A stretch of 64,000 bases of DNA from assembly GCA_965178125.1 (NCBI GenBank), contig OZ237745.1, positions 372,001 through 436,000 of the forward strand, read 5' to 3'. This DNA is from Bilabrum cf. latius (taxonomy: Eukaryota). Below, piece after piece: positions 18,912 to 43,485 of this stretch. Both the position numbers and the translations under genes were made by a program. Position 1 is the stretch's first letter. The number at the start of each line of letters is the position of its first letter. The notes below the pieces were generated by a model. It had not been told where the DNA came from and searched no databases. It saw nothing but the letters and a program-made list of their open reading frames with translations.

Positions 18912-19893
18912 GGGGGGGTCAACGTGGTGGTGGTGGAGTGCCACACCAAGCGTTGAGGACGAGGGCTACGCTACGCTCGCCCCTCCTTTAAAGGCATATT
19001 TAGCAACTCAAGTGTTTCCCCTATAAACCTAAATGATTTCCCAAGGGGTTCCCCAAGAACCCCTATAGAACCCCTCTATGTACCCATTTTCAGATATAAA
19101 ATTTACTCCTACGAAGTAGGGGTAAATTGAAGAATTCTAATATTTAACCCCCTTATAAACTCTAACAGCAAAGACAGAGATGTTTTAGTAAAGTAGGAAA
19201 AAATGAAGAAATTAACCAAGTGTCCAAAATATCTCTGTGTTTGCTGTAGGAACGGAAGGATGAATTCCCAAGAGACCAAGAGACCAACCGAGGATTTCCC
19301 CAAGAGAACAAGGTATTTTATCAAGAGACCGAGGTATGTTCCCAAGCGACAAACCGATAAACCGACCGATGAACCGACCGATGAACCGACCAAGGATTTC
19401 CCAAGGATTTCCCAAGGATTTCCCAAGGATTTCCCAAGGATTTCCCAAGCGACTAAATTGTTCTCCGAAGCAACCAAACCGATTACCCAAGAGATGATAC
19501 ATTATAAGGAAAACGAAAACAAATTATAATTGTATTTTAAGTCCCTTTGGAAAAGTCCCCCAAAAATTGAGAGATTTGACAGGTCAATTTTAAGAGACTT
19601 AGAAAGAATAAATATATTTTCCAATTAAAATTAAATGTTGTAATTCCTATGATGCCACCATAAAAATTAAAAGGAAAACGAAAACAAATTATAATTGTAT
19701 TTTAAGTCCCTTTCGAAAAGTCCCCAAAAAACTTGTCAATTTTACAGGTCAATTATAAGAGACTTAGAAAAAATAAATTAAGTTCCCTATTAAAATTAAA
19801 TGTTGTAATTCCTATGATGCCACCATAAAAATTAAAAGGAAAATAAAAAACAAATTATAATTGTTTTCCAATTAAAAACACAAAAATTGATTG
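18912..19893 (+). repeat. Virophage left terminal inverted repeat
   Basis: Reverse complement of 42325-43485. Contains 11-bp GGATTTCCCAA and 12-bp ACCGACCGATGA tandem arrays and a ~170-bp direct duplication. Confidence 0.95.
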
Positions 19894-19954
19894 CCTAAAG
19901 TGGAAATGTCGTACCTTAAGCATAACTTACGTAGTCTATAGTACAACCACATAA

Positions 19955-20194
19955 ATGGCAAAATCACAAAAGGAACTCGAGAATTACATCTTGGCGACCA
20001 AAGAATGTCTTAAATCAGTCCCGTTTATTACAACACGAGAAGCATACGATATGGCCAAAAAGTACCTTGAATTTACAAAGACTATTATTTGGATTAATTA
20101 TGATGATGACGATGACCTGCTTGCTGACTTTGAGGAAGCTAAAGATTTAAGTCAAATTGTAGTTGAATGGCACGAAAGTACCAAAACCAAATGA
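19955..20194 (+). CDS. Virophage hypothetical protein (79 aa)
   Basis: ATG..TGA ORF preceded by the conserved TCGTACCTTAAG/TCTATAG motif. Confidence 0.7.
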   Translation: MAKSQKELENYILATKECLKSVPFITTREAYDMAKKYLEFTKTIIWINYDDDDDLLADFEEAKDLSQIVVEWHESTKTK

Positions 20195-20259
20195 TTTTTT
20201 CCCAAGAATTATTTTCCCTACTTTACAAAAGTAAGGAGAATGATACAACTATATAGCAA

Positions 20260-21315
20260 ATGAGTAGCGCCTTTGAAAGAATATTACAATCCCTAAACAT
20301 TTATCCCAACAGTCGTATTGTAAATTTAATGAAACGACCAAAACGACCCAAAGGAGTAAATCGACCCCACGTAAATGTACCAGAACCTCACCAAGTGGTA
20401 CAAATGGATTTATTATCATTACCCCACGACAATAATTATAAATACGCATTAACTGCTATTGATTTACATACAAAGTAGGCCGATGCTGAACCGCTCAAAA
20501 CCAAGCGTTAGAACGAAGTATTAAAGGCATCAAAAAAGATTTTCAATCGTGGTAATGTCCAGAAACCGCAGCACCGTTTGGAAATAGATAATGGAAAAGA
20601 ATTTAACGCTTTACAAAGATATTTAGAAGAGACCGATGTATTTGTACGAAGAAATAAAGCAGGTCGCCACCGACAACAAGCATTAGTGGAAAACTTAAAT
20701 AAAACGTTGGGAAAAGCCATATTTACCCTATAGAACGTTAATGAGTTAAATACAGGTAACGAAAGCGTAGAATGGGTGGATATGCTTCCAAACATCATTG
20801 AAAACTATAATGAATATCAACTGGAAAAGTATATAGAAGAACCACCTTTACCCCCAGAACACTTCGACTTTACGTAGTGTAAAGGGGACGCTTGTAATAT
20901 ATTGGAAGAGGGTACAAGAGTTCGTATACCATTAGAAGAACCCAGAAAGGCTACAAATTTACAGCAAAAATTATCCGGAAATTTTCGTGCTTCCGATTTA
21001 CGCTATAATCCAGAAATCAAAACGGTTACTAAAGTGTTATTAAGACCCGAACAACCACCTTTATATGTTGTGGATTAGGACGATTTAGTGGCTTATACAA
21101 AAGAGGAATTACAGATTATCGACTTTGATAATGAGGACAATAACCGAGATGCTCAGACAATCTTTCTCCCAAAAAAGATAAAATCCGAGAACGAAACAGA
21201 GTATCAAATCGAATGGAAAGATTTTCCAGAACCAGAACATTGGACGTGGGAACCAAAGAATAAAATCCAAGAAATTGCTCCTAATTTAATTTTGGAGTGG
21301 GATATAGAAAATTGA
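20260..21315 (+). CDS. Retroviral-type (rve) integrase with C-terminal chromodomain (~351 aa)
   Basis: With TAG read through: HQVVQMDLL, EIDNGKEF, QQALVENLNKT (D-D-E) and YQIEWKDFPEPEHWTWEP. Ends TGA. Confidence 0.9.
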
Positions 21316-21372
21316 GATGCCTCGTATCGTACCTTAAGGATTATTTTCGTATTCTATAGTACAACAACAAAA

Positions 21373-23034
21373 ATGTCATTCACTCTGCCGACTAAAGCGT
21401 ATTCGTCAAAAAGCCTTATGGACCTATGTAATGCCGGAAAACAAGAGGAATGTATTCAATACCTTAAACAATACTTCTACCGCACCCACGAGCAAGGTGG
21501 CGGGGTGTATTTTCTAATAGCATCTGAATTAAATCGGAATAACATAAGTGATGACGAACCCCAGAAACCAGTCTGGTAGTTCCTTACGAATAAAAATATT
21601 ACTGAAAATTACCTGATTGGGGGACACTGTATTTACGCGATTGTGGGCAACAAAAGAGTAAAGACTTGGTCAGCACGAGACTGGTTCTTAAATGAGAATA
21701 CCGACGTATTTACGATTGTAAGAAAATTTAATTCACCTACCGTGGATTACGACAATCAAACAATTAACGTTATGGGTTCACCTATACTTACACGGGAAAA
21801 CTGTGGAAACATAGAGGATTTATCCGAAGACGCAAAAGCAGGCGCGACTATGATTTATGAACATATCCAGAAGGTGTGGACTTCAGAAGACAAAGAATAG
21901 TGTGATTTTGTGATGAAATGGTTGGCTCACGTTATTGTGGGCGGAAAGAAGTTGGGAACAGCACTATATTTGAAATCTCCACAAGGAACTGGTAAATCGA
22001 TGATTATTACCTTCCTTATGAGAAAACTACTCGGATATACCCTCACACTATAGACGCTTACACACAAGATGCTTCAACCCGACGCCTTCAACTCAATTCT
22101 GGACGGGAAACTATTAGTCAATTTTAATGAAATTCCAAAAGCCCCGCCAACTATTTGGGACGCCATGTAGGCAACACTAAGAAATCTTATTACGGAAAAA
22201 CACTTTTCCTGTAATGAGAAGTTTGTCAAATCCGAAAGTCGTCCGAATACATTCAATTTAATTATTGATACGAATGATAGTCCAATCAAAATCACCGAGG
22301 AAATCCGTAGATATTGTGTTTTGGATGTGAATACATCTAAGAAAGGAGACAAAGAATACTTTACAACACTAAAACGTTTTACAGAAAATCCAGAAGTGGC
22401 TAAGGCATTTTATATGTTATTGGTTGAAATCTATGATACATCACCAGACTTTACAGGACAATTCGCACCAAAATCAAAGAATTTTTACAAAGGAATTCTT
22501 GATGGCGCACATCCGGTTTTAAAAATTCTAAAAGAAGAGTGGCTGGACGAAGGCAGAGATTTTAAAATGACAGTCTTGGAATTCCGCAATTATCTAAAGT
22601 AGGAACTGAACGGTAGAGTGAAGAACCTTGGTACACCTATGATTAAAACACTATTGTCAGAGGTGGGTGTTCATTCAACGATGAACAAATAGAGAAAACA
22701 AGAATTTAATGTGAAACACGCAGACTTACTAAAAGGCTTCCAATCTAAGTTTTAGGCACTTCGTCATTCTGCTGAGATGGAAAAAGCAAAATCCGAGGTG
22801 GATGTTCTTCGAGAATAGATTAGAGAACTACAGAAACAAGTCGCATAGCAACAGGAAACGATTGAATAGTTGGAATTAGAAAAGGAGATTACACCGACGG
22901 AAAAAGTCCATAAGAAAATCCAGAAACAGCTGAGTGTTGAGAATAGCATCGCTATTCAAAAATGGATAAAAGAGAACCCACCAAAGAACAAAAAAGGGAA
23001 ACTTTCTAAATTCCTCTGTAAAATTGAGAAGTGA
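21373..23034 (+). CDS. SF3/D5-like helicase (~553 aa)
   Basis: With TAG read through: Walker A LYLKSPQGTGKS, Walker B-like LVNFNE, IIDTND, RRYCVLD. Ends TGA. Confidence 0.85.
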
Positions 23035-23091
23035 GTGAGTTCGTACCTTAAGAATAATTATCGTATTCTATAATATATTAGATACTATAGA

Positions 23092-24933
23092 ATGCCCGAA
23101 ATCGATTTTACGGAACCCCAAAGAACCAAATTGCGTCTTAATGGGAAACCAATATGGAGTATGCGATTTGAGAGCGAGGACCTTATCAACGTAAAAGATG
23201 TCTTGGAGTTTATCCGCGATTACGACGATGGTGGTGAAAATCCGTTTGATGACTTTAAATTTAAGGTGAATATCAATTTTCAAGATACAGGTTGGCGAAC
23301 AAGAAGCACTTGGATTACTACAGATGATTTAGAAAATCAAGATAGTTTATGGGCGGGTTACGAAGACGACGATGACGACGAATATAGAAAATTGAATTCT
23401 TTTGAGCTACTGCTTATTAGAAAGCCAGAACCAGAAGGCGGTGCTGACGAACATAACGATTGTTTATATAACGCTATAAAACAGGCTTTTCCTTTTTCAG
23501 TTGGTCGTAAGGTTAATGTAAAGAACGCAAAAGGCAAATGGAAAACTACTATTAAAAGAATGTCATAGTCTGACCTGAAAGAATTCTTGAAAATTGGGCG
23601 TGATGACCCCGTTGATTACAGAAGAATACCAGAGATAGAAGACGAACTAGAAATACGTATTAACGTTGTGGGCGACTTTGAATACACATCTGGAAAAACT
23701 CATTTTGACCGTCTTCTAACTGTATCATTAACAAATGGGCATTACAAGTATGTTCCCCCCATTAGTTAGAAAGAATTATTTACACCGCCGTCTAAAGAAC
23801 CGTGTACGCTAGTTACCCGCTTGTATCAATCCGAGAATTCTTATTTACTATTTGATGGAGACCGTGAGTATCAATCAGAAGGCATTACATCAGTTTCCAA
23901 GGATAAATTCATCTTTGAAGTCAAGTCCAAGGAAGAACTAAGAACAAAACACGAAGAACGGATGAAAAATGTAAGGGCATTAGCGAAGGAGACGGGTGGA
24001 TATATGGATTTATCACGATTTATGTTTAGAACATCCCTATTTGTAAAGTCGTATTTCAGTAAGTTTTCCAAACTTTACCCTGCCGACCCGATTGACCAAG
24101 TTGAAGCACTATGGATTTCAAGAGCATCAGGTGGTGGATTGAATTGGGCAAACAAGAATACTACATTAAAAAACGCATACCAGTACGATATTAACTCATT
24201 TTATCCAAGTATTATGAAGGGTACATTTACATTTCCGGTTAGAAGGGGTAAGTTCGTACAATTTAAAGTACCATCCAGTGGGTTCTATCCGTACGGCATT
24301 TTTAGGGTACAGATTGAAAATCTCAATTCTAAATTAGTACAAAAAAGAAAAAACAATTATTATACCCAATATGACATTAACCGAGCGATTGAGACGGGCG
24401 CTTAGGTGTCTCTGATTGAAGACGGTGAAGCCAACGCTTTACTTTACGATGAGACAACAAGGGTGAAGGCAAATGGACTGTTCAAAACGATGATTGAGCG
24501 ATTGTACGGTTATAAAAAATAGGGATTGAAGTGTGCGAAGGAGATACTAAATAATATTTGGGGTTCTCTATGTTAGAAAAACACAATCACAAAAACACTC
24601 CGAGATGGTGATTGTATGAATTTTAGACAATTAAAGAACGCGTATCCTAAAGCATCTGGACGACTTGTATCGGGTATACTATATGACGAAGAGTACGATT
24701 ACAAAACAGCCTACGCAAGAATGGGCCCCTTTCTGACTGGACTTGGACGAAGTAAATTGTCCAAAATGATTGAGCCATATCTTGAAAACATTCACTATGT
24801 CAACACGGATGGTTTCATTAGTGAGAAAGAATTACCTCTAAAGTTATCAACGAACCTTGGGGGTATGAAGTTGGAGCAATCAGGTGAATGTCAAATTATT
24901 CACAGTAAGAAGAAAATTTTTAGAAAAGATTGA
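23092..24933 (+). CDS. Protein-primed family B DNA polymerase (~613 aa)
   Basis: Motif A YDINSFYPSIM, motif B KEILNNIWG, motif C YVNTDGF. One frame with TAG only, ending TGA. Confidence 0.9.
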
Positions 24934-24989
24934 CCAAAGCACCGCAGTTTACCGGCGGAACGGCATAAAAGTGTTTAGAAAAGATTGAA

Positions 24990-25262
24990 TTAAATAGTCT
25001 GCTTTTCCTTAAGCTTCTAAATTTCCTATCGCAAACTATCAAGTTCATCCATAATATTAATTTGTTCCCTTTTTGTGTCTTCCTCTTTTTGAAGCCAATC
25101 AAGGTGTTTTTTTGTTCTACAATGATGTGATTTATTGTACTTCTTATATACGCCTCCACACGAGCATTGTATCTATTCTCCAAGTTTTTCCTTGTTTTTC
25201 CGGTAGTATTCACGGGCATACAGCTTATCCTGTTCTTTTCTTTCTGAATGACTGAGTGTCAT
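24990..25262 (-). CDS. Small zinc-finger protein (~90 aa)
   Basis: CSCGG..HHCRTKKH motif followed by a coiled coil; 3 internal TAGs; ends TAA. Confidence 0.7.
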
Positions 25263-25298
25263 TTTTGTATTCTATAGTATTATACTATAGAGTTAGAT

Positions 25299-26528
25299 TT
25301 AAGTATCGTAGGCAAATATTTTCCAAGCCTGTTTTAGGGCATTCTTCTTGGATATTCCTTTTCCTCTTAAAATGGACGCCATTTTCATAACTCTTGAACG
25401 TTTTGTTTCACACTGACATTGACCTCCAAATATTTCCAGATACATACCCGATACTGGGTCATTCGTATGCGAATGGATTTCTTTCATAATTGGTCTTCCA
25501 ACTGTTTTAGTTGCTAAATCCCAACCTTCCTTAAAATCTTGTCCAAAATCCCTTTCTGTGTTCTACTTATGTTTTGCCTAATTTTTCAGTAAGGCGTTTC
25601 TGACATTTTCCGGTAAATCATCTAAACCTCTCCCAAACCATTTGGAAAAATAACCAGCCACGTCAGTAGCAGCATTAGCCACTCTCTTAGTAAATCCCGA
25701 TACACTCTTAGCAATACTTTCCACATCCTACATAATAAATTGGTTTAAGGGTGGTGTCAAAAACCCATTTGTGCGTAGAACATCCTAAATGAACTTTTGA
25801 CAATTCAACGAGAAAGCACGATACTAATAAAAATTGTATTCTCCTATTTTTTGTAAAGTGGTTTCATATAATTCCCTTACTGTTTTCTAAGGTTTTCCAT
25901 TAATATTTACTTCCATAGTTTGTGTTTTCTTGTTGGTGGAAAATCTTGGGGACAAATTCACACGCTCATTCTTCTCTAAATATATTTTCCTACCACCTCC
26001 AAGGTTCAACTCTAAGGCTAAATGAAAAAAATCATTATATCCGTGTTTATTTTTTAACTTTTTCATTTTTCCCAAGGTTATCCAGTTGAGTAACCGATTA
26101 ATCGCACCACTAATAGGGGTTCTAATCACTTTCATAGCTATAATTGTTCTATCCCCGTATTGCTGTAGTGTTCTCTGGACTTCGTTTGAATTCCCATACA
26201 CAACCCCACCTTTAAGCTGGCTTCGCGGACCATCTTTTAAATACTAATGAAGTGTGTTGGATTGTGTAGGTTTCTTCTAGGATTTCTTTTTTGGTTTTTC
26301 TTTTGTTCCCACACCATCTTTAAGCTGTTGCGCCAGCTAACTGCGCCGAGAGGGGGTGCTTCGCACACCATCTTCAAACTTAATTGCTTTTTCAAGGGCT
26401 TCTTTAGAATAAGGATGTTCACTTTTCCATGTCCTTGTTGTTTTACTCTTTGGTTCTTTGACACTAATGTACGTCTTAACAAAACCAGAATTCATTTTTC
26501 CGCCACTAAGTGAATAAAAACTATCCAT
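25299..26528 (-). CDS. Virophage protein with a putative permuted papain-fold (PPPDE/LRAT-like) domain (~409 aa)
   Basis: Three track ORFs share one frame through TAGs. Motifs FFHLAL..LEKNE and YRAFSLNCQKFI (His before NC). Ends TAA. Confidence 0.6.
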
Positions 26529-26554
26529 TTAGTATAGACTTGTATTTAAAAAAC

Positions 26555-27172
26555 TCATAGACGAGAACCAAGACCAAATGTTTTACGGACGAATTCCTCC
26601 AGTTGCTAAAAGGATGAATAGACACAGTACTAACTCTAATGTAATCCAGCGATTAAATTCGTTCTTGAGCGTTCCACAGACAATAAGTCCCCCGATTTTT
26701 TACCCTCACGGATTTCCTCAAAAAGACTGTGAGAAGGCACACACACAAAAATTGAACTTTCCTTAAATAAATCTTTCGCTAATTCCAACGAACCAACCAT
26801 AACAATTAAACGCCTCGATTTCTTCGTGAGCCAATCCGCTTTAATTTTTTCATACACTAATCTTGATTGGGAATAATAAAAGAGGCGGTGGGTGCTTTCA
26901 TCACCATCAATTAACATTTTCTCCATTTTCTATTTTTCCTGTCCTGAGATTTGAGCATTTACGCATTCGTCTAAATCAATAATTAGCGTGTCCTTATCCA
27001 CCGCTTCTAGGGAGCGACACAAAGTAGTTTTCCCAGAGCCTTTTGGAACAACCACGCAGGATTTCTGTTTCTAAGTTCCGTCTTTCGTCCACCAAGAATA
27101 TAGACACCGACTACCAGAATACATTAAAGGAGCCAAAGTCCCAGCAACCATTACAGCAGATGACACTGACAT
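26555..27172 (-). CDS. P-loop NTPase/kinase-like protein (~205 aa)
   Basis: VVVPKGSGKTTLCRSL and LIIDLDE; ends TGA. Confidence 0.65.
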
Positions 27173-27204
27173 TGTTTTGATATACTATATACCAAGACAA
27201 ATAT

Positions 27205-27888
27205 TTATTGCTACTCTTCTTGTTTCTTCTATAAAAGTTTTACATGCTTTTGAGTTTTTTGATGTCTTCTTAGTTTATCTTCTGTTATAGAACATCCACA
27301 TTCACACTATACTGTTTTCCGTTTTGTTCTATACTCCTACCCATTACTTTTGGCAATCATCCGCTTCTAATGAATTTGGGTTTTTCTATGTCTTGCGATT
27401 TCATGACGTCTTAATTTTGTTCCACATTCACAAACACATATATCCTTTTTTATCTAAGACAACACTTTTTCTGAATTGGATTTGTACCTTTCACGAGCAC
27501 GTTGTCTTATATCATCTATATTTTCTTTGTAATACTCTCGTTTTTTCTACATAATTGCCTAGTAGTTATCTATTCTATACTAAGCACCACTTCGACCAGC
27601 AACCATTTTATTCACACATTCGGTTTTCTGTATCCACTACCCTTCTATTTTATTGAGTTCTTCTTTAGACGAGCACGAACATGTTTCGATTAGGTCTATT
27701 CTATGGTCTTCCATTTGTAAAACCTTAAATGATGTTGTGTACCCATACTTCCCCTTCTTATACTATCTAAATTTTATCCTATGCTACGACATTCTCATAC
27801 TCAAAGATTGAGTAGTAGAACCAATATACGTTAATCCTGTAGAAGGAGACCAAATTTTATATATCTTCCCCTTTGAATAATCAGGCAT
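27205..27888 (-). CDS. GIY-YIG endonuclease with C-terminal CECG zinc motifs (~227 aa)
   Basis: MPDYSKGKIYKI..TYIGSTTQSLSMR and CECG..RHQKTQKH. Missed by the ORF track because of TAGs; ends TAA. Confidence 0.85.
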
Positions 27889-27949: not shown

Positions 27950-29749
27950 TCAAGCTTGGAGCATAGCGAGAAGTTGATTGCGAGAAAGAGATTTACCACC
28001 TGTTAAGCCCGAGCCTAACTTGGCACCTGTTAAGCCCTTGCCTTTCTTGGTAGTTTTTCGGGGTTTCCTTTGGCGTCCCATACCAGCCATTTCACCCACC
28101 ATTTTAGCGGTGTCAAATACCTACTTACCATCCTTTAATACTTTTTTGAGATTGCCTTTCTTTACCCAATCAGCGGTTTTGTGTGCGAACTTTTTTAAGG
28201 CATGTCTAATCTTTTTCCCAAGACCGCGACCATGTAATCCTGATAATTGACTTTCATAGACCACGGGTAGTTTAGAGGCGGACAAAACGTCTGCTCGTGA
28301 GATGACACCCTGCTAATACTCGAACTTAGACCCATCAATCAAATTTAATACTCCTTCGTATAATCCAATCACCACACACTATACATTATCGTAGTCCACA
28401 ACATCATTATTCTTCACTCGTAGGGTGATAGACAATTGATTAGAACCGTTGCTACCATTCGTCTAATCTACATCTAAGCTTAAGTCCTTGGCGGGGTCAA
28501 TACATAGCAGGCCACCAGATAATACCCTTTGTTGATATCCAGGCTATTCAGGCTATATTCCATTATCGAAGCGTCGCATAGCCCATTCCGCGTATTGCTA
28601 TTCAAGTCCGTTGCTTCTGGATAAGTCCCATAACTGCTGTGGCGATGCGTCGGCGAGTAATCCAGATTTGTTATTCATCTCGATACTTATTCCCTCAATT
28701 CCAAGGAATGTGTTTCCCTAATCTACTGAGACGCTGGTAGGTGAACGACGGGCGAATACAAATAAACGACTTGGTACACTATTGCTAAGTTTTATGTTGT
28801 TGTTGGTAAGAGTTGCTGTAGTACCTGCGGCAATTGTTGGACTATGACTTTGGGTATACGAAGTCATCTCAAAAATATCATACGAGACCTATTTAGGAAG
28901 CACAAAACCTGTCTTTGGGGTGATTTGTTCAAGATATAGGGCTGGTTCTTGGACATCTACCGACTGAACAGTAGCAGTTAAGCCCTATTGTGGAATACGA
29001 GACCAAACGGTTTTACTCAGTTGAGACCAATTAATATTTAAGGAGAGTGTTTGAATTCCGTATATAGCCGTTTGTTCCTATTTACTTTCGTAGTGGAAAG
29101 GTGGGCATAGTACTGCCTCAGTGCATTCAAAAACAAGAACACGATTTTGAGTTTGACCTGCGGGTACATCAGTATTATCCATTTGATACAAATTGTAAAA
29201 TCCACTTCCTCGGGCTGGTTGGTCCTAAAGCACGTCCTCATACGAAGCAAGAGCGTTATTCGTAGACTAACTCATCATCGCGTATGAAGGCACATTATCG
29301 CGTCTATACACACTATCAAGGCAATTCACACGGTGGACATCATCATCTAGTAAATGGGACAGCGCGTCCATTAATTCTCCGTTGTTCTGGGTATAGCGAA
29401 GGTTATTAATGCCAACTGTCTATGTTGCGATGGAGCGATTAAGTGGATAGGAGCGTGGAGCATCGTAATCTGGTCTAAAGGGTGCTAGACCACCTGCGGT
29501 TTGATTATTCACGGAAAAGGTGATAGAAAATCGGCATGAGACATAGGCGCGGCGGCACAAACCTACACCTGAAGGCATACTAATATTCCAGTTGACCCCG
29601 CTGTTGTAGTTTCCGGCAGACCCGGAGGGGTTATATTTACGGAAAGTCCGGTTCTCATAACCTTCTTGAACTTCATAAGGCTTCGGTTGTACATCTAGTG
29701 TTGCGGGTGATACTTTGACTGGCTGAAGGGCAAAGGTATTCAATGACAT
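27950..29749 (-). CDS. Virophage major capsid protein (599 aa)
   Basis: 1800-nt frame with ~14 TAGs and no internal TAA/TGA. Segments DAPRSYPL, NNKSGLLADASPQQLWDLSRSNG, GGLLCIDPAKDL and a basic Gly-rich tail match the recalled Sputnik-type MCP pattern. Confidence 0.9.
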
Positions 29750-31556: not shown

Positions 31557-32738
31557 TCAATCTTTTCCTAAAAGATGTAATAGTTCCATAGCAACCTAAT
31601 GATGAATATCTTTATCGGCTCCTTTTACTTTCTTGGCTACATTCATTGCTGTATCATAGATAATCCTTTTTCCACCTCGTAATCCTTTCCCCTTTTTTGG
31701 TTTTCCACTTTCTTCTACAGTCATTGCGCGTGATGGTGGGTCTTCTAAATCAGGCTACTACATTCCATAGGGCGGACTAAACCCCGTAAATCGCTACACA
31801 GGTCTAGTAGCACGTTTTCCAATTCCCTGCTCAATTTCCATCCTACTCGGCATATCATAGTACTCACCAGTTTCTGGGTCCCACGCCCCCGGAGTGCTTC
31901 CTTGCGGTAGTGGTCTTTCATTGCTCGCTGCGGCTAATATGGCATCTAAGTCTTTTGATGTTTTTGACGCATTACTACTTGAACCCTCTTGAAAATGCTA
32001 AAACATATTTGTCTGCCCCTGTGATGTTCTTTGTGAGAAATTCTTTCCCTATTCTAAATCCCACGCTATTCGTTGTTTTTCAGTTAAGGGTCTGTCTTGT
32101 TGTATTCTTTCTCTGGCTCTTTCCAATAACTATTTATACGCACCCGAAGACCTTTTTGGAAGCTGTACTTGTGTTGGAGCGGAAAACGTGTTTCTTCTTG
32201 TTGTTCGAGCAGGTGTTTGTAAAGATGTTGGCTACTAATCAATTCCCAACATTCCCTACGGTATTCGTTGTCCGGATGCCTCCTATATAACTTTCCCTAA
32301 TTCTAAGAGTTGTTTTCTATCCTCAGCTGGAACTCTCTGCAGTCCTTCGTATCCTTTCCTTTGAAACCTCTCTATGTTAACGTATTGACGGGCGAGTTGT
32401 TGCTTCATTTGTGGAGACATATTGATATTACCAACAAAATCCTTCAATGCTTTCACTGCTGGACTTACATTTTTACCCTCAATAATACCTTTCATTATAC
32501 CAGATATTGACTTAGATATGATTTCCTCGTTGCTTTGGTCTGCCTATTTTCTCTACGCTGGAGTTCCATACCTTCCACTTTCTTTTAATCGTTCAATTTT
32601 TGCCCTTTTCCTTATAAAATCACTATATTCTGTTTCTAAATCTACGTCGTCCCTTGCCTGTAAATCTAACATTTTAGCATTGTCCAGTTCCCTTTCTAGG
32701 GCTTGCTGAATAAGAGCATTCACTTTAGCAGTTTTCAT
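31557..32738 (-). CDS. Virophage hypothetical protein (~393 aa)
   Basis: Track ORFs 32553-32738 and 32283-32495 share a frame, read through TAG to TGA at 31557-31559. The middle was not checked codon by codon. Confidence 0.65.
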
Positions 32739-33072: not shown

Positions 33073-33975
33073 TTACATAAGGTAAGCCTACTTTTCTCCT
33101 AATAAATACCTCGGGTAATTCCTGTGGACACATACCCACCTAGAAGGCATTTTTAAGACTTTAGAGATTTCTTGTTTCTCAAGTCCTATATAATTTTTTA
33201 GTAAATACCTTAGAGAATGTGCGGAAGAACACTAAGGGAATATAACGAACTTATGACTTTCCGCAAGAATAATTCGGGTACTTTTATAGTTGGTAGATAA
33301 ATGACTTGTAATTAATACAGAAGTATTTGAATGTCTTCCAACCTACAATATTTCATCCTGTAAATGATTGAGGGCTTCCCTTAACTTCTTATCTTTGATT
33401 GTATCAATATCATCCAAGATTACTAAGGCGTCCCTTAATTCCTAATGAATATCAATCGGGTTCTCCACCAGTTCCTCATTTAAAATAATCCTTTTCAGTC
33501 CTTTCACTTCATCTAAGACTTTATCCTACTATACTCGTGAAAATAAAATAATTCTCCTGTTTGGAAACATTCTGTGATAATTCTTAGCATATTTGGAAAC
33601 CCAAGTAGACTTCCCAGCACCTGATGGTGCGGTGATATAAATGACCTCTCTTCCTTTTGGATTTGGTAATGATTGGAATTCACCCTATTTTAATGTAATC
33701 TCTTTATGTTTCTTTTCCTATGCTTTTTCATACAAGTATTTGATGTCTTCGTCTAGGGGTTCGACCTGTTTGATTAAGTGTCGTGCTAATAAATCCATTT
33801 TCCTCTGCGGAAATCGTTTCCCTGTAAGTGATGATACTTGAAAATCCTAGAATGATATACTATCATCTCCAAATTGGTTGTCTGTCTTTTCCGCTGTGTA
33901 TAAAATACGTTTTCCGTGAGTGTCATATGCGATAGGTGATGATTTTGTAGTTTCCTTCCAAGAAAAATGTGCCAT
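33073..33975 (-). CDS. A32/FtsK-HerA family genome-packaging ATPase (~300 aa)
   Basis: Walker A APSGAGKST, Walker B LVILDD, GRH motif and LITSH; ends TAA. Confidence 0.92.
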
Positions 33976-34164: not shown

Positions 34165-34719
34165 ATGGATTATGCTCTTAGCGATAGTGATATTCGTGTT
34201 CTCCTCCAAAATCCACCAAATATTAAAGGCTTTCTTCCTACGTCGGTAAATATTGTACCTTATACTGAATTAGGATAGTACAATAGTATTGATGGATTAT
34301 TTAGTCGTTGTAATTGTTGTATTATTTTGTATCAAGAAGAAATAAATTCCGGTCACTGGGTTTGCTTATTTAAGCGTAATAAAACAATATACTTCTTTGA
34401 CAGTTATGGAATTCGTCCAGATAGGCAATAGAGTACGATGAGTGATGTAGTTCGTAAAAGGTTCTATGAAGACCCTGAGTTAATTTATTTAATGTATCAT
34501 TCTCCGTATAAGATTGACTATAACCCATATTAGTTTTAGGCAGATGGAATGGATATAGCAACCTGCGGGAGACATTGTATAGTTCGTCTTTGGAATAGAG
34601 CGAAAAACGCTGATTAGTATAAAAAGTGGGTGGATAAGGTTTGTAAGAAACATACATTAAATCCTGATGAATTAGTGTATTTATTGACGTATCATCTTAA
34701 TGATATACAGGAAATATAA
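34165..34719 (+). CDS. Adenain-like capsid maturation cysteine protease (184 aa)
   Basis: SGHWVCL (His), FFDSYG (Asp) and Y-TAG-F-TAG..TCGRHC (Gln, Cys); ends TAA. Confidence 0.92.
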
Positions 34720-35059
34720 ACGGGCATACATTAAATATTATTATATCACTTTATAGAAATAATGCGTTGGACTTCAAAAGACCAAGATAAATGTATGAGA
34801 TTAAGGGGAAAAATAGATGACAAAATATGTAATCTAAACGTCAAACAAGGTGTTCTGATCCTAACGCCGGATGGGGTTCGGTGTTGATGCCAGAGTGGGA
34901 GCGCGTGAACGTCTCGTTGGGTTCCGATGGCGGTTGCGACCGGGAAGGTGCGACCAAGCCAACGGATTGCTTGCGATGACGCGCATACCCTCTCTGTGTT
35001 CAGGAGAGGGGCGGAGATTGGGTAATTTTTGAAGAAAGTTCCTGCTCCGTTCATTTAAC

Positions 35060-38000
35060 ATGAACAGCGCCGGTAGCCATCGGATCGACCCGGCGCGCGG
35101 GGCAGCAGGCAGCGCCAGGGTGATCGCCGCAGCTGCAGTGTTCGCTCGCGCGGTAGGCCAACCTGCGGTCACGTTGGCCGATTTAGCTACTCGATATGGT
35201 ATGAATGATGCTGTGTTCTCGGATTTCATTGCTCGTCTCAACGTGCAGCGCGACACCATGGCGCCTCGCGATCCCGATCTTCAACGTGCACACGATGCGG
35301 GGTTCCTGTGCTACTTGCTCGACAGGTACTCATCAAAGCAGTCCTTCACGGCATCACGGTCCATTAATGCTGTCAAGAGCACCGCTCTCGCCAAGTTCGT
35401 GTCAAATGGGACGCTAACGACTCTCGGTGCACGGCTGCTTCTGCCGGCGTCGCCGAGCTCTCCTCGACGGCAACAGCCTGAGCGACTCGCAGGACAAGTA
35501 CATCTTCATCCTGTTCAGCAATCTCCAGAGGCTCCTTCTTCAATCGAGTCTCCATGGTCCCTGAGTTCACTACCGACGGGCCGGCGGACCGCTCCTCTTC
35601 GCGGACAGCATCGGCCACCCGGACGCCTCGACTTCGGCGCCGCCATCCATGCTTCACCTGGACGCGACCGAGCGGCGTAGAGTGCCACCAGGACAAGCCG
35701 CGGAATTTCGCCCTTGCGGGCGCGGCCAGGCTCTTCGACGACGCGGCAGGCCCCGCTCGCGCGAGGCGGGCGGGCCCACCTGCACGAGTCCCCGAACCGA
35801 GGGCCCCCGGGGACAGCAGCAGATACCCAGCGCAGCGGACAGCCCAACTTCTCAACGTCTTCACCCCCGCGGCACCAACCTCCACCTGCCTCGGGCAGGC
35901 TCCCCGGTAGGCCAGGCACTCGGGACTTCGGCGATCCGACAGTGCTCGCGGAGGCGCTCAGCAGTGCAGCATCACGGTCAACGGGCCCGGCAGGCCCTCA
36001 GCTTCTTCTTCCTCGTGTGTCTCCGGCTTACGACTCCCCCGGCGTGACTCCGGGCACCAGCCGCTAGCTTGACGCGGTCTGGGGCCGCCTTCCTGGGGAT
36101 CTCCAACGGGCAGTGTTGCACTCCACGACGCTGCGGGGAACGGCCGACCCAGCGACAATTCTGCATCTACGCCTGTTTGCGCTGTGGCACAGCATTCCGA
36201 CTCTGCGCCAGGAAGAGCTGCTGTCGCACCTCTCCGCCCACGTGGAATTGCAATGGTACTTCTCGCACCGACTAGCAGCCTCGATGCACTCATCCCCGCC
36301 ACCAGTCGACGCTACACCCGCTCATCAGCCACCCCGTGAACCTCCTGTGTCATCTTCTGCCTCACCGCAGCCTGCGTCTTCAATTGACCCAGTTTCACCG
36401 GGCGCAGGCACGGCAGTGGACTCCGCGGTCGTTCGCTCGCAACCAGTGGAGATTTTGTAGCGTGAGGCCTCTGCACCTTCAATCGCTGCAATTCGAATGC
36501 AGAATTGGTTTTCTGATGATTTCTTGGCAACGTTGACCTCGATCTTTCGCCAATCCGCGTTCATGCCGCGGTTTTGCTAGGCTGACGCGCTTCATTTGGA
36601 CGCTAGCGGCCGCGATTTCGCTGCAGAACTGGCCCGTGCCCTGTTTGGTCAGGCCGTGACGAGAGCCAAGATTGAATCGGCTATTTTCTCGTTCACGAGC
36701 CGGCTTCATGCAGCTCTGCCGATGAGCAATGCCAGTTTTGGGAAGTTTGATGCGTCCAACTCGGAGTCGTCTGCTGCAGGCGGACGAGAAAAGTAGGTGC
36801 CATCTAGCGAGTTACTATGCACTATTTACTCGGCTATTTCCTTTGCTTTAGGCTGTGTGCTCGTGCGCGCTGCTTGCGTGCATTCGACGGCGTCCTTGCC
36901 GTCCTGGTTGCCGCAGGGCAGCAGCTCGTGGTCGTGTCCAGCATCACTAGTGCCCGATTGGAAAACCCTGGGGCAGGTTCGCAATGATTTTCTTCGTTTG
37001 GTTAGTGCTTCCGGGGCATCATCTGCATCGGCGTCCCGACTAGAGGTGGTGTTTGCCGCTGTGTGTGTGATACCACGCGGAAGTTCAGCCTTTGAGATGC
37101 TCTCCTCCCATGCTTGGCGCCATACAGGCGAACGCTGTGACGTTGAGATTCGTGACCTTGTTGGGAATGAGATTCCTTCGTGCTCTTCTGGCGACTGCAT
37201 GCGTCTCCTACAATTGCTGCATCCGTGGGCCACTGAGGCATGCAGATCAGGCGAACCTGGCCTCGTGCGCGGACTGCTACAGGGAGTCCAGGCTGACATG
37301 CAGGCGCCGTCCCGTCGAGCAGCACTGTCCCGTCACTTCGACCCCCGCGGGGGCAGTGGAGGCCGGGGCAGTGGAGGCGGGGGCAGTGGAGGCTCCAGGC
37401 GCAGCGGGGGTGACAGCGACCAGCCCAGTGCCGATCGTGGCGGAGGTCGACACCGTCGAGGCCGTGGACGTGGCGGCGCAGGCCAGCAAGGTGGCCAGCA
37501 CCAGCGTGCGGACCGGCAGGACGGGGGTTCCACCAGGAAGTCCAAGGAGCCTTCACCTGACCCCCCCCCACGAGGTACGTCACGTCAGAGCCAGCCCAGC
37601 ACTCCAACACCAACACTGCCGCAGGGGCGTACGCAGACTACCACCACATCGGACGCGTGTGCTGCTTCCACACCACCTGTCACGTCAACGCCCGCGCTTC
37701 ACCCAGTCCTGGTGGCCCTAGCGCGCCCTAAGCGACCGCAGCGGCCGCCCACGGCGTCATCCACGAGGCTGCCAGGTAGGACGGACATCTCTCCAGCATT
37801 CGTTGACTGGGCATATCCAGCTCCGGATCCAAGCCATGAGTGGGCAGGGACGACTGCACCCTCCGTCGAGGACTTCATACAGCGAAAGGACGATCACCAG
37901 CGTACCAGAGAATGTCCCGGCGAATTCGTGGAGGCTCCAGCTGCGACGTGGGACCGTGAGCGGCTCCACCTGAAGGTTCACGACGACCCGCTGGCATTCA

Positions 38001-40819
38001 CGCCACGCAAGTACTTCGACAAGGTGCCTCGCTAGACTGCAACACTGCGGACCCGGCGGGAGGTTCTGTTTGGCGGCCGCACACCGAGGAAGGCCCCGTC
38101 CCTTGCCGAGTTTAAAGCCCTCCCACGAGTCGAGCGTGTACTGGCAGCACTGAACTATGGTTGCCCCCTAGCCATCGTGGACGAGGTGCCCAAAGAGCAC
38201 GATCTAGACTACAAGGACCGTAAGCTGTCTCCGGAAGAAAAGTGGGAGATCGCCTGCGAGATCGGGCGCTCCATGCGGGCTGGCGAGCGTGACTTCGTGT
38301 CACCCAAAGATTTCGACACAGCCCGGGCCCGGCCGCTGGTGATCCCCAAGAAGGACTCGACAAAGCTACGGTTCCTTCAGGACTCCTCACTCAAGGTGAA
38401 CGGCCAGCGTACCGGTCTGAACAAGGCCATCGACTACAGTGCAGCCACGCCTGTGCAGCAGACGAGCAGCATGGACGTGCTGCGCTCGGCAGCCGCAGCA
38501 GTTCGATCCTGCCCCAAGCGTGCCAGCGGATACGTCGTCGACATTTCCTCGTACTTTCGGGTCCTGCCGGTGGCAGTGGAGGATCTCCAATACAACCTGA
38601 TCAAGCTGCCCGACGGGCGCATCGTGCAAGATTTCAGGCTCTCTATGGGCAGCTCATCATCTCCCGCCTTCGCAACTACGATCAGTTCGGCTTTGGCCCA
38701 AGCCCTCGAGGAGCAGTCCATTGGCAGGGCCATGCGACCCGGACGGAGACACAAGCAGAAGCAACGACGCCGGAAGCAGCAGCACGCCAACGCCCAATCC
38801 AGCACGACGGACCAGGCGCCCCAGGCGAACTCGTCAGCAACGTCCACCCCGCCTGCCGCTAGCACGACAACGGGACATGTCAAGACGGCCCAAGACTAGT
38901 CCCGCCATTGGTAGGTCGAAAATGAGGTGTTTGTAGATGACTTTGCCTGCCTCGGCGGAGATCACGAAGTCGATGCATGGGCAATTCGAGCCATGGGGCA
39001 GCTGGACTCCACAAACTTCCCCGTCAGCATCTCGAAAGCATTGAAGCAAGGGGCCCCAGCCCCGGTGTTCGAGTACTTGGGCCTCACCTACGACTTGATC
39101 AAACACGAGGTGCGGTGCCCTAAGGACAAGGCCAACGACGTCCTGCGCAGACTGCACGAGGCACTCACGACGAAGGGGATGCTGCTGTCTAGCTTTGAGA
39201 CCTTGGTCGGCAAGTTGTCCTTCCTGTCGGGCGCACTTTATGGTATGCGCGGTGCTCTACGTCCCCTGTATGACGCCAAGGGCTGGGCCCTTCACAAGTA
39301 GGCCAGCCGGTCACGACCAGGTGAGGTGTGGGTCCCCACCTCCTTTGTGTCCAAGGGTGGCTTCACAGTTGGGGAAATCCTCGAGGGATTCCAGGTGGCT
39401 ATCCAGCGCAAAGGCGGGCGCAGCTTTCCGATGCGGGGCACCATTGACTGTCCCATCCTTCGCACTGATGCGTCGGTGACAGGCTACGGCGCCGAGCTGC
39501 TTCTCCACGACAAGGACGGCAACATCACTTCGCACACCGGCATCCAGGGCACTTGGCCGCATCGCCTAGAGGCGAAGGATGTAGCGGCGGCAGAACTTGC
39601 AACATGTTTGTTGGCACTGGCGCATTGGCGACAGCACCTGCGTGGACGTGTGGTGCGTTTGTGGTGTGATAATGATGCTTCCGTGTAGCTGATACGCTAC
39701 GGCAGACCCAAGAGCCACATCATGGCAGCCTTACTTCGCCCTATCTTCGTACTGCAGACAACGCAAGATGTGCAGATTCACGTGAAACACATTCCTGGCG
39801 AGGACAACGTCGTTGCGGACGCTTTGAGCCGCGGCTCACAGGAGGCATACACGCACCTGGACGCGGTGTATCAGGTCGACTGTCCCACGCCGATCTGGAA
39901 CACCTTGTACAAGCACGACCATTTCACGCTGGTGGCCACTCTGGACTCAGTGGGTTGCGCACGGCGTGGGGGCACTTCGACAACTTCCTCACGTGGTACG
40001 ACATCGACCGCAGTTTCATGGACGGGCATCTTCCAGCAGCTCGCAGACTCTTCGCGTTCAGGCTCAATGCAGCGCTCTCGAGATTCGCAGTCTTCTTAGG
40101 GGAATGTTCGCCTCTCAGTGGCGGCACCATCGCTACATACACCAGAAATGCCTAGCGAGTCGTCATCGAGTCCACAGGTGCGTGCGGCGTCCCACGGTCA
40201 AGCTAGCTCGACAGCATCCTCCGGTACTACCACAAAGCATCGCCATCGGCGCACCCGTTGCGTCGATCTTCAGCCCCACTCCGCGCAATCCGACGGTGCT
40301 TCTCGACAGCCGGTTGCAGCACAACAGAGTAGGCTGCTCGGACAGCTGTCTGTCTCTGCTTCTGTGGGGGCCTCCGGCTGGGAGAGCTCGTCGGTGCGTC
40401 CAGACGACAAGCCGGCCTCCAATGGCAGCAAGTGCAGTTCATCACGCGAGACGGACGCATCCATGGTGTTGCCATCCGCCTGGGCCTCCACAAAGCCGAC
40501 GGCCCAGCCAAGTTCTCCATCCAAGCCGCAGAGCCCATCGCAGTCCATTGCAGAGCCGGACGATGGGCAGTCACAGGCAGCAGGTTCTGCGGCGTGCGAG
40601 CCTTCGTGGCGTGGGCAGCAGCGAGCCACGCCCCAACTGCAGGCGCAGACGAAGACTACGCCCGGTAGCTGGCGCTCAGCTGCCCCACGTCAGGGCCAGT
40701 CTTCGTGGCGAACACGAAGCCGATCGTCAAGGCGCAGGTAGTACGGGCGCTCCGCAGCTTCTGCTCACGAGAAGTTGCAGGAGCGGTGCACGGACATTCC
40801 ATCCGCATCGCGGCAGTGA
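35060..40819 (+). CDS. Ngaro Gag-like + reverse transcriptase + RNase H open frame (up to ~1919 aa)
   Basis: Single frame with TAG only. RT motifs VIPKKDSTKLRFLQD, VDISSYF, LSMGSSSSP and FVDDF. RNase H motifs TDAS, AAEL, CDN and HIPGEDNVVADALSR. Confidence 0.85.
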
Positions 40820-41013
40820 TGTGTTTGGACCGTGCTGGGGTCGCCTTCGAGGTCATTAGGCGATTTGGCAGATGGAAGTCGGCATCTGCATGCGAGGTGT
40901 ACTTGCGGGGCGTCAGGGAAGGTTTGCCTCCTCTGGAGCTCGGCGGCAGGAGCCTCGATTTGAACAGGCCAGTGTGGGTGCTGGCCAGCGCGCTGCGGCT
41001 GAACTTGGAGTGA
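39955..41013 (+). CDS. Ngaro tyrosine recombinase (overlapping frame; start uncertain)
   Basis: GGLRLGEL (Arg), HSIR (HxxR) and GRWKS..CEVYLR (Trp, Tyr); ends TGA. Confidence 0.88.
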
Positions 41014-41794
41014 GCCACACAGCCGCAGCGTACAAGACATGGCGGTAAGATTTGGCGGAGTAGTGCACGTGCTCTTCCCAGCCCCGGTCAGTCCGGTCAA
41101 GGGTCGCGCACAGGCACAGCTTTGTCAGGTCTTGCCATGTCTGATTGTTAACGAGACTAGGTTGCGCGTACACTCTGGCATCATGATCCTAACGCCGGAT
41201 GGGGTTCGGTGTTGATGCCAGAGTGGGAGCGCGTGAACGTCTCGTTGGGTTCCGATGGCGGTTGCGACCGGGAAGGTGCGACCAAGCCAACGGATTGCTT
41301 GCGATGACGCGCATACCCTCTCTGTGTTCAGGAGAGGGGCGGAGATTGGGTAATTTTTGCCCACCCTCCCAACCCCCTCCTCCTCGGCGGAGTAGTGCAC
41401 GTGCTCTTCCCAGCCCCGGTCAGTCCGGTCAAGGGTCGCGCACAGGCACAGCTTTGTCAGGTCTTGCCATGTCTGATTGTTAACGAGACTAGGTTGCGCG
41501 TACACTCTGGCATCATATCAGAAACAGCAATTAAGGAGATTTAGAGTTTATTTTATAATTTAACATTATTTGAAAAGGAACCTGAGAAGTATAAAGAACA
41601 AATTAAATCACTGACAAATATGGTGGAAAACATTATATTTGAAGAGCAAGTAGAGTATCTTGTAAAATAGGCGAAAACACGAATTCTTAACAAAGACGAA
41701 ATCAAAGAGATAATCGGTAATTATCTCTAAATAATAAAGATGATATTAAGTCCCCATAAAATGCTGATGTTTCTTGCTGTTAAAATGGTGTGAT

Positions 41795-42079
41795 TTATGA
41801 ACTCCAAAGGTAAAGATGTGAGAAGAACTTTGGGGTTCTTGGTTTTACTTCGATACCGTGTCGTTTGAAGTATCTAAATTGGCGGTCCGTATCTAAATGA
41901 TTTAAATGGCTGTAATACCCTATTCTATCGTAAAATTGCTAATACCGCCTATCACCAAACGATGTAATATATTCATCATTTTCGTCAAAAACATCGTATT
42001 TTGAAGTTTTGCGTCTTGAGGGTGCTTTAAATAGAAAATTTTCAACAACCTTTTCAAAATCGTAGGTATGTGGCTTCAT
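41795..42079 (-). CDS. Small virophage/giant-virus-type protein (94 aa)
   Basis: KYDV..ITSFGDRRYQQF..HLNHLD..RH..FFSHLYLW; ends TAA. Confidence 0.65.
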
Positions 42080-42324
42080 AAGTACTCTATAGTATAGTCT
42101 TCTACTTATATCAAAGCCCGAGCTTCTTGTATTCCTTTAGTTTTTCGTGTAATTTTTTCCAAATACGTGGATTAATTTGCTTGACAATATGCTCTATCAT
42201 CAACTCCTTTAAAAATGGGTTCATTTAGTATAGTGATATAGAATGCTTTAAATTATCATCTCTCGGGTAATCCTTGGAGAATTAATTTTAATATTTCTTT
42301 GTATCCTATATTGTCAAAATTTTT

Positions 42325-43485
42325 CAATCAATTTTTGTGTTTTTAATTGGAAAACAATTATAATTTGTTTTTTATTTTCCTTTTAATTTTTATGGTGGCA
42401 TCATAGGAATTACAACATTTAATTTTAATAGGGAACTTAATTTATTTTTTCTAAGTCTCTTATAATTGACCTGTAAAATTGACAAGTTTTTTGGGGACTT
42501 TTCGAAAGGGACTTAAAATACAATTATAATTTGTTTTCGTTTTCCTTTTAATTTTTATGGTGGCATCATAGGAATTACAACATTTAATTTTAATTGGAAA
42601 ATATATTTATTCTTTCTAAGGCATGAGCCGGAACGGCCACTGCCGCGCTGCCCCGCCCCCTTCCCTAAGGAAGGAGACGAGGGAATGCCTCGCAAGCTGC
42701 TGGTCGCACTGGCGGTTGCAACCTCGCGTTGGTAGACCGGAGCCTGTGTTCGAGTCTCGAACGCATCGCCACATCAACCCCGAACCCCATTCGGCGTTAG
42801 CATTATTAAAATTGACCTGTCAAATCTCTCAATTTTTGGGGGACTTTTCCAAAGGGACTTAAAATACAATTATAATTTGTTTTCGTTTTCCTTATAATGT
42901 ATCATCTCTTGGGTAATCGGTTTGGTTGCTTCGGAGAACAATTTAGTCGCTTGGGAAATCCTTGGGAAATCCTTGGGAAATCCTTGGGAAATCCTTGGGA
43001 AATCCTTGGTCGGTTCATCGGTCGGTTCATCGGTCGGTTTATCGGTTTGTCGCTTGGGAACATACCTCGGTCTCTTGATAAAATACCTTGTTCTCTTGGG
43101 GAAATCCTCGGTTGGTCTCTTGGTCTCTTGGGAATTCATCCTTCCGTTCCTACAGCAAACACAGAGATATTTTGGACACTTGGTTAATTTCTTCATTTTT
43201 TCCTACTTTACTAAAACATCTCTGTCTTTGCTGTTAGAGTTTATAAGGGGGTTAAATATTAGAATTCTTCAATTTACCCCTACTTCGTAGGAGTAAATTT
43301 TATATCTGAAAATGGGTACATAGAGGGGTTCTATAGGGGTTCTTGGGGAACCCCTTGGGAAATCATTTAGGTTTATAGGGGAAACACTTGAGTTGCTAAA
43401 TATGCCTTTAAAGGAGGGGCGAGCGTAGCGTAGCCCTCGTCCTCAACGCTTGGTGTGGCACTCCACCACCACCACGTTGACCCCC
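42325..43485 (-). repeat. Virophage right terminal inverted repeat (with 185-bp insertion)
   Basis: Reverse complement of 18912-19893 apart from 42621-42805. Confidence 0.95.
42621..42805 (-). repeat. Solo repeat related to the Ngaro A repeat, inserted in the right TIR
   Basis: Reverse strand reads CTAACGCCGAATGGGGTTCGGGGTTGATG versus A-repeat CTAACGCCGGATGGGGTTCGGTGTTGATG, and shares GGTTGC/GTGCGACCA/GCTTGCGA/AGGGGCGG blocks. Confidence 0.75.

Follow-up and report, generated by a model that had tools for sequence, protein, structure and literature searches.

The endogenous mavirus-like elements (EMALEs) of Cafeteria burkhardae are virophages that reside in the genome of a protist, and Ngaro retrotransposons have been described as insertions within them (Hackl et al. 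2021, PMC8547959). Endogenous viruses written in the non-standard code of their host have also been reported: those of Streblomastix strix use the host code, in which TAA and TAG encode glutamine, from which the authors concluded that virus and host have long been associated (Bellas et al. 2023, PMC10120064). Nuclear reassignments restricted to UAG have been described by Panek et al. 2017 (PMC5304391) and in phyllopharyngean ciliates (PMC11687900), and a suppressor tRNA present in one virophage clade has been interpreted as pointing to codon reassignment among the hosts of that clade (PMC6905037). A literature search, outside which lie supplements that may list codes or elements, returned no paper on a virophage with a reassigned stop codon; likewise, the main text of a preprint on the endogenous virophages of Halocafeteria (10.64898/2026.07.28.741278) lacks the terms "genetic code" and "stop codon" as well as TAG and UAG, and reports no Ngaro. 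Here, a stretch of 64,000 nucleotides from Bilabrum cf. latius (contig OZ237745.1, positions 372,001 to 436,000; hereafter, the window) is analysed, where an endogenous virophage appears to be integrated in a nuclear genome that reads UAG as glutamine, to have long been adapted to that code, and to have been invaded by a Ngaro-type retrotransposon.

Borders and composition of the element

The element spans positions 18912-43486 of the window, 24.6 kb including the retrotransposon passenger and 17.9 kb of virophage proper. GC content falls sharply at its borders, from ~0.52-0.70 in both flanks (about 0.58) to 0.34-0.43 at ~19-35 kb and 41.5-43.5 kb, with an internal GC-rich block (0.58-0.64) at 35-41 kb. 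Terminal inverted repeats (TIRs) of ~1 kb close the element on the left (18912-19893) and on the right (42325-43486), the right one being the inverted repeat of the left arm. Their outer arms (18913-19593 and 42806-43486; 681 nt) and their inner arms (19598-19893 and 42325-42620; 296 nt) are each 100% identical, and between the arm segments lie tandem units of 165 nt, the number of which is unequal on both sides, the right arm holding one extra stretch of this internal repeat compared to the left.

A short target site duplication (TSD) flanks the TIRs. The host sequence reads ...GCTACTT|GGGGGGG... on the left and ...CCCCCC|TACTTT... on the right, so that CTACTT is found at 18906-18911 and again at 43486-43491. 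The TSD is 5 bp long (TACTT) if the element ends at 43486, or 6 bp long (CTACTT) when the final C is assigned to the host, as in the initial annotation, which had placed the TIRs and a 6-bp TSD around 18912-43485 and is confirmed on those coordinates. Neither tblastn nor blastn detected further virophage copies in the flanks.

Hallmark genes and their affinities

With TAG read as glutamine, the element holds 14 intact and tightly packed open reading frames (ORFs) with 4583 codons in total, among which are all four virophage hallmark genes (capsid, penton, packaging ATPase, and cysteine protease). The major capsid protein (27950-29749, minus strand; 14 TAG) matches the Sputnik-type domains PF22031 (1.8e-31) and PF21915 (5.1e-25), and its Pfam matches comprise virophage families only, none of them of Polinton-like virus (PLV) or Polinton type. 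Against PDB sequences, it matches Sputnik V20 at 9.1e-33, and at 1.2e-9 the entry 6g45 ("putative major capsid protein"), which we take to be the mavirus capsid protein; a tblastn search with this protein against a phage collection (named virophage references) returned nothing. The penton or minor capsid protein (29828-30943, minus strand; 14 TAG) is recognised by PF21507 over its N-terminal 140 residues (1.5e-10) and by the Sputnik minor virion protein 3j26_N from PDB (4.9e-14).

Identification of the other two hallmark proteins comes from fold comparison. The FtsK/HerA-type packaging ATPase (33073-33975, minus strand; 9 TAG) was modelled with a predicted local distance difference test (pLDDT) value of 92.1, and its model matches the packaging ATPase of Yellowstone Lake virophage 5 (YSLV5; 1.3e-30), Sputnik V3 (4.8e-28) and, at rank 5, the mavirus FtsK-HerA ATPase (4.7e-17). 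Its Walker A motif, GAGKS, is invariant, and the protein belongs to a family of 2970 representatives at E <=0.001. The adenain-like cysteine protease (34165-34719, plus strand; 5 TAG; pLDDT 89.8) has Sputnik V9 as its top fold match (E 1.2e-17, TM 0.84), followed by adenains, and when 27 relatives are aligned, the residues H64, Q125, and C134 do not vary. This protein has no match in Pfam, and the WD40 repeats that phmmer returned for it from PDB were rejected as spurious. In the fold comparisons of both proteins, adintovirus proteins score below the virophage ones. Since the capsid is not of Polinton/PLV type, which was the question that the initial annotation had posed, and since the morphogenesis genes match virophages best, the assignment of the element to the endogenous virophages is supported by both sequence and model comparisons.

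For integration and replication, on the other hand, the element has a module of mavirus type. The integrase (20167-21315, plus strand; 6 TAG) combines an rve core (PF00665, 1.7e-9) with a C-terminal chromodomain (PF00385, 6.7e-6). It is followed by a D5-like primase-helicase (21373-23034, plus strand; 10 TAG), which matches PF19263 (DUF5906) at 6.9e-15 and the PHROG DNA primase at 5.7e-19, and by a B-family DNA polymerase (23092-24933, plus strand; 5 TAG), which matches PF03175 below the cut-off (1.9e-5) and the PHROG DNA polymerase at 7.7e-13. The PHROG match covers residues 319-608 of the polymerase; its N-terminal 318 residues have no match in Pfam, PHROG, or PDB, and the whole protein has none in PDB. 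The capsid module, in turn, is nearer to Sputnik and the Yellowstone Lake virophages than to mavirus.

TAG as a glutamine codon

The 14 virophage genes hold 106 in-frame TAG codons and no in-frame TAA or TGA, and they end in TGA (seven genes) or TAA (seven genes), never in TAG. TAG accounts for 106 of the 271 putative glutamine codons (39%), and replication and structural genes are recoded alike. Under the standard code, no ORF of at least 100 residues is found in the genes for the ATPase, protease, GIY-YIG endonuclease, integrase, helicase, penton, orf409, orf205, or orf393, and only fragments of the polymerase and the capsid protein, together with the TAG-free orf163, come to the surface.

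The identity of the encoded amino acid was examined by comparison with the syntenic environmental relative L004 described below. The 79 TAG codons of the window that align to its orthologues in nine genes face CAA or CAG in 21 cases, TAG in 11, glutamate in 8, lysine in 7, serine in 7, and arginine in 5, the rest being scattered. When BLOSUM62 scores are summed over the 68 partners other than TAG, glutamine is the best candidate (113), ahead of glutamate (71) and lysine (48). In the capsid alignment, the relative P0002 (58% identical) has glutamine in 7 of the 12 aligned TAG columns.

The same usage extends to the surrounding DNA. Ten long host frames hold 46 TAG among 301 putative glutamine codons, and the frames of the embedded retrotransposon hold 16 in-frame TAG. 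One host gene encodes the ribosome-biogenesis protein BRX1 (PDB E 2.2e-86), where a TAG stands in the ungapped block FRHY[TAG]VL at a position occupied by glutamine in human and by glutamate in yeast BRX1. A host-wide code in which UAG would mean glutamine while UAA and UGA serve as stops (cf. NCBI table 15) is therefore well supported at the codon level. The host housekeeping genes BRX1 (53613-55298, plus strand), GWT1 (49572-50960, minus strand), and a short-chain dehydrogenase (57797-59098, plus strand) contain 2, 5, and 2 in-frame TAG codons, respectively.

These results bear out most of what the initial annotation had claimed about the coding content, namely that capsid, penton, ATPase, protease, integrase, helicase, and a protein-primed-type B polymerase are intact once TAG is read as glutamine, that the standard ORF track misses the ATPase, the protease, and the GIY-YIG gene, and that the code is that of the host.

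Environmental relatives

Relatives of the element were found in metagenomes. All seven loci returned by a scan of JGI metagenomes are relatives, with capsid identities of 53-60%; in-frame TAG is present in six of these capsid loci (6, 6, 6, 3, 3, and 2 codons), the TAG-free seventh being a fragment of 157 codons, and TAA or TGA in none of them. The most informative is L004, which covers 13.8 kb of a 15-kb contig with a uniform GC content of 0.40-0.50 and is syntenic with the window element for nine genes (helicase, polymerase, orf393-like, ATPase, protease, penton, capsid, orf205-like, and orf409-like) at 43-63% identity. Each of these nine genes carries in-frame TAG and terminates at TAA or TGA. 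ENA assemblies hold nearer proteins, with 94% identity for the capsid and 97% for the protease at the protein level. Among virophage-like IMG/VR loci matched by the ATPase (31-49% identity), in-frame TAG occurs within the match in 0 of 80, and the capsid finds there a single distant relative, L001, with 26% identity and no TAG. As metagenome relatives with capsid identities of 57-60% share the TAG code, recoding is, judging from these alignments, a property of the lineage that is not confined to the window copy.

Promoter-like motifs

A motif of the form TATA[G/C]TA or TATAATA, often found as TCTATAGTA, occurs 33 times in the element, compared to 13.8 +/- 4.1 in Markov-1 simulations. Of these 33 hits, thirteen fall within the 45 nt that precede a start codon and serve 12 of the 14 genes, in stretches that make up 1.8% of the sequence and where ~0.6 hits would be expected, and the motif stands 8-27 nt ahead of nearly every start codon; one more hit is located 18 nt ahead of orf79. 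The same start-proximal motif precedes 8 of the 12 genes of L004.

A second signal is held by orf79, helicase, and polymerase, which have an upstream box of ~52 nt in common and the octamer AAAATTGA 65-72 nt upstream of their starts; the polymerase of L004 has AAAATTGA at the same upstream place. The octamer occurs 15 times in the element versus 3.2 +/- 1.8 in simulated sequences. Eight of the 15 sit in the TIRs (18912-19893 and 42325-43486), inside the 165-nt tandem units, four of them in the left TIR.

According to a review (PMC5294985), mimivirus and Cafeteria roenbergensis virus (CroV) have AAAATTGA as the motif of their early promoters, and the late motif of CroV is TCTA within A/T-rich flanks; TCTA is also used by the promoter of mavirus and EMALE type 4 (PMC8547959). 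The motifs in the window thus resemble the early (AAAATTGA) and the late (TCTA-like) promoters of Mimiviridae, from which we infer that a Mimiviridae-like giant virus would supply the machinery that transcribes the virophage genes. Such a helper would have to work in hosts where UAG encodes glutamine, because all virophage genes need this reading.

A Ngaro-type retrotransposon inside the virophage

The GC-rich block in the interior of the element is, by its repeat layout, a Ngaro/DIRS-type retrotransposon of 6.66 kb with a putative tyrosine recombinase (34856-41516, plus strand), situated in a spacer of the virophage. Repeat comparison identified the segments A1 (34856-35031), B1 (41054-41184), A2 (41184-41359), and B2 (41386-41516), with A1 identical to A2 over 176 nt and B1 identical to B2 over 131 nt (100% in each pair). 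The insert shows the layout A1-[ORFs]-B1A2B2, which is that of the Ngaro elements invading Cafeteria virophages (PMC8547959).

Its putative reverse transcriptase/RNase H frame (35060-40819, plus strand; 12 TAG) matches RVT_3 (RNase H-like) at 8e-6, and no RVT_1 match was obtained in Pfam. The putative recombinase ORF (40018-41013, plus strand; 4 TAG) has a weak match to Phage_integrase (1.2e-4; 22.3 bits versus a cut-off of 27.1). An FVDD motif and an HxxR...Y pattern were recognised by eye only. Other copies of the retrotransposon in sequencing run X7 diverge from the window exactly at 34856/34858. When the virophage flanks of the insert are rejoined, no frame longer than 79 residues crosses them, so the insert lies in a spacer and the virophage gene set is intact.

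Remaining open reading frames

The small ORF orf79 (19955-20194, plus strand) has the conserved box ahead of it and runs, in a different frame, 28 nt into the beginning of the integrase gene. No motif precedes the integrase itself, and the two may be co-transcribed or linked by frameshifting. On the minus strand, orf90 (24990-25262; 3 TAG), orf409 (25299-26528; 9 TAG), and orf393 (31557-32738; 13 TAG) have no assigned family; orf409, the P-loop protein orf205 (26555-27172; 5 TAG), and orf393 are kept in L004 with identities of 51%, 55%, and 43%, respectively. Also on this strand, orf94 (41795-42079; 1 TAG) has a weak match to DUF5754.

The GIY-YIG endonuclease (27205-27888, minus strand; PF01541, 6.3e-8) is encoded between the capsid and orf205 genes, which adjoin each other in L004 (11764-11802). 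No promoter motif precedes it, and with 12 TAG in 227 codons it is richer in TAG than any other gene of the element. It looks like a separately acquired, homing-endonuclease-like gene. Finally, orf163 (31000-31491, minus strand), with no assigned family and no TAG, is similar to an ORF of 381 residues in L004 (3777-4922, minus strand) over the first ~20 residues (60% identity), after which both diverge, a pattern compatible with an anchor that is conserved and an outer part that varies.

Copies in sequencing runs and host neighbourhood

The sequencing runs that were compared with the window consist of short contigs, the depth of which does not equal copy number. In run X4, a host flank contig (17500-18704) without differences has a depth of 48.9, and the virophage contigs, at depths of 588-627, show ~1% divergence from the window (20 differences in 1797 positions and 12 in 1124). 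Run X5, which carries another organism label, holds a virophage contig of 5.7 kb with 72 differences. Run X7 covers the host flank without difference at a depth of 54 and the retrotransposon at 1300-2100; of the virophage, it lacks the body and contains just a TIR-like piece. The runs point to a family of elements that is polymorphic and present in multiple copies, and in X4 and X5 there are copies with a variant terminal sequence.

The integration site is a transposon-rich spot. At ~200 nt from the right end of the virophage lies a gene for a piggyBac-like transposase (43678-45417, minus strand; PF13843, 8.4e-10; 6 in-frame TAG). Approximately 1 kb to the left of the site, a contig of run X7 skips 199 nt at 17682-17880 with GT..AG ends, which would be a host intron if X7 is RNA or a deletion variant otherwise, X7 being rated as probably DNA. 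Further to the left, two long frames on the plus strand (787-3261 and 3386-5677), with 824 and 763 codons and 8 and 7 TAG, respectively, have no convincing Pfam match and may belong to another mobile element or represent lineage-specific genes.

Proposed history of the element and alternative explanations

The explanation that best accounts for these data, and which is held here with high confidence, is that of a virophage integrated in a nuclear genome with UAG as glutamine, long adapted to this code, with a probable mavirus-type life cycle that would involve a giant virus, and with a later Ngaro insertion. According to this model, the virophage would have used its own rve integrase to enter the nuclear genome of a GC-rich eukaryote, in which UAG is translated as glutamine while UAA and UGA terminate. 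The virophage lineage would have evolved for a long time in this code, since TAG makes up 39% of its glutamine codons and some TAG positions are common with relatives of 43-63% identity. As in mavirus-type endogenous virophages, the element would stay silent in the genome and be transcribed and replicated upon giant-virus infection, a life cycle suggested by the resemblance of the start-proximal and AAAATTGA motifs to Mimiviridae late and early promoters, respectively. The helper itself would have to tolerate UAG as glutamine. The Ngaro-type retrotransposon would have entered a spacer of the window copy later, breaking no gene.

Several observations weigh against this explanation. The helper is deduced entirely from the motifs, and no giant-virus sequence, virion, or transcript turned up. 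The 6.66-kb insert may block replication or packaging of the window copy. Among the contigs listed, none bridges the left junction (18912), and the stretch compared did not extend to the right one, so that integration is deduced from the assembly, the TIRs, and the TSD. The overlap of orf79 with the integrase start, together with the absence of an own promoter motif, makes the mode of expression of the integrase uncertain, and no exonuclease domain is detectable in the polymerase with Pfam, PDB, or PHROG. ARAGORN found neither a tRNA(CUA) nor any other tRNA gene in the window, of which an Rfam scan was also empty, so that the machinery decoding UAG is unseen. Lastly, IMG/VR is probably biased against recoded genomes, and therefore the 0 of 80 count overstates how unusual the code is.

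An extended version of this explanation, to which slightly less than even confidence is given, would be a three-partner system in which protist, giant virus, and virophage all operate with UAG as glutamine. The lineage would have been recoded before the window copy split from its 43-63% identical relatives, as the 11 common TAG positions suggest, and the habitats of these viruses would also harbour a Mimiviridae-like giant virus with sense TAG, which would have escaped notice because its genes are cut up by pipelines that assume the standard code.

The alternative that survives best, even if it is considered unlikely, is an autonomous Polinton-like integrating virus or transposon with a virophage-type capsid, which would rely on its own integrase and polymerase and on host transcription, without any giant virus. 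The element does encode an integrase, a helicase, and a polymerase, it is multi-copy in the host, and no giant virus turned up in the analysis; moreover, a section heading of the Halocafeteria preprint (10.64898/2026.07.28.741278) states for endogenous virophages that "giant-virus signatures are absent". However, all four morphogenesis genes match virophages best, over Polintons or adintoviruses, and the uniform start-proximal motif, together with AAAATTGA before replication genes, forms a giant-virus-driven pattern, unlike host nuclear promoters.

It is very improbable that only the virophage is recoded, with TAG being suppressed during infection of a standard-code host by a virophage or giant-virus tRNA. 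Phages with TAG as glutamine in part of their genes are known (10.1101/2022.06.29.495998) and a virophage clade with a suppressor tRNA has been reported (PMC6905037), but host genes and the GC-rich retrotransposon hold in-frame TAG too, including the BRX1 codon at a glutamine/glutamate position of an ungapped conserved block, the element lacks a tRNA gene, and its replication and structural genes are all recoded. Scarcely credible as well is an assembly chimera, in which a free or contaminant virophage contig would have been mis-joined to host DNA. The lack of junction-bridging contigs among those listed is consistent with it, and a multi-copy element invites such mis-joins; nevertheless, the TSD flanks the complete TIRs exactly, the element uses the code of the host, and it contains a host-type retrotransposon that is very abundant in X7, a run which lacks the virophage body. 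The view that the virophage is dead and pseudogenised, its TAGs being nonsense mutations in a host with the standard code, is for practical purposes refuted by the codon counts (106 in-frame TAG versus 0 TAA/TGA), even though the standard code breaks nearly every gene, and also conflicts with the swaps between TAG and CAA/CAG in orthologues, the 100% identity of the TIRs, and the same TAG pattern in relatives.

If the integrated and code-adapted virophage is accepted, virophages are able to keep pace when their hosts adopt a non-standard code, and recoding would tie this lineage to hosts with UAG as glutamine, acting as a built-in host-range barrier. Surveys based on the standard code would under-count such elements, given that 9 of the 14 genes here yield no ORF of 100 residues. 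The sampling sites of the relatives are predicted to harbour giant viruses that combine in-frame TAG with promoter motifs known from Mimiviridae. The association of virophage and Ngaro, known from Cafeteria, would now extend to a second host with a different code, and the UAG-only reassignment of the host may itself merit reporting if its lineage lies outside the known cases.

Comparison with known systems

The initial annotation had described the element as a complete endogenous virophage and had set it beside the integrated mavirus-like virophages of Cafeteria. The gene set is indeed intact, and what had been left unmentioned is that the element is split by the Ngaro-type retrotransposon (34856-41516). 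As for the likeness to mavirus, it holds for the rve integrase, the B-family polymerase, the long TIRs, and the short TSD, but not for the nearest proteins, as seen in the capsid, the ATPase (mavirus at rank 5), and the protease (Sputnik V9 at the top), the capsid module being closer to Sputnik and YSLV5.

Among endogenous viruses in non-standard codes, the EVEs of Streblomastix are also integrated small dsDNA viruses that use the nuclear code of a protist host. Their capsids, however, belong to a Metamonada group of Polinton-like/Maverick type, and they use table 6 (PMC10120064), whereas the window element has a virophage capsid, reassigns only TAG, and stops at TAA. In keeping UAG separate in meaning from UAA, the host in the window is like those with UAG-only codes (PMC5304391, PMC11687900).

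Sputnik and YSLV5 provide the best matches for the capsid, penton, protease, and ATPase. Sputnik has a tyrosine integrase and is not known to encode a polymerase. What sets the window element apart from Sputnik and YSLV5 is its rve-chromodomain integrase, its B-family polymerase, its integrated state between TIRs and a TSD, and its recoding.

The EMALEs and the window element are alike in being low-GC, multi-copy virophages with long TIRs and a short TSD in a GC-rich host, in encoding an rve integrase and a protein-primed-type polymerase, in carrying a GC-rich Ngaro insert of ~6-7 kb with the layout A1-[ORFs]-B1A2B2, and in having a TCTA-containing motif before their genes. They differ in the capsid, for which Sputnik V20 (9.1e-33) is a far better match in the window than 6g45 (1.2e-9), in the ATPase, closer to YSLV5 and Sputnik than to mavirus, and in the host, with a flank GC of ~0.58 and TAG as a sense codon. 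The window genes also use TAG for glutamine, whereas the term "genetic code" occurs 0 times in the main text of PMC8547959. By lifestyle, the nearest system is therefore the EMALE/Ngaro association of Cafeteria burkhardae, while by its capsid the element is Sputnik/YSLV5-like.

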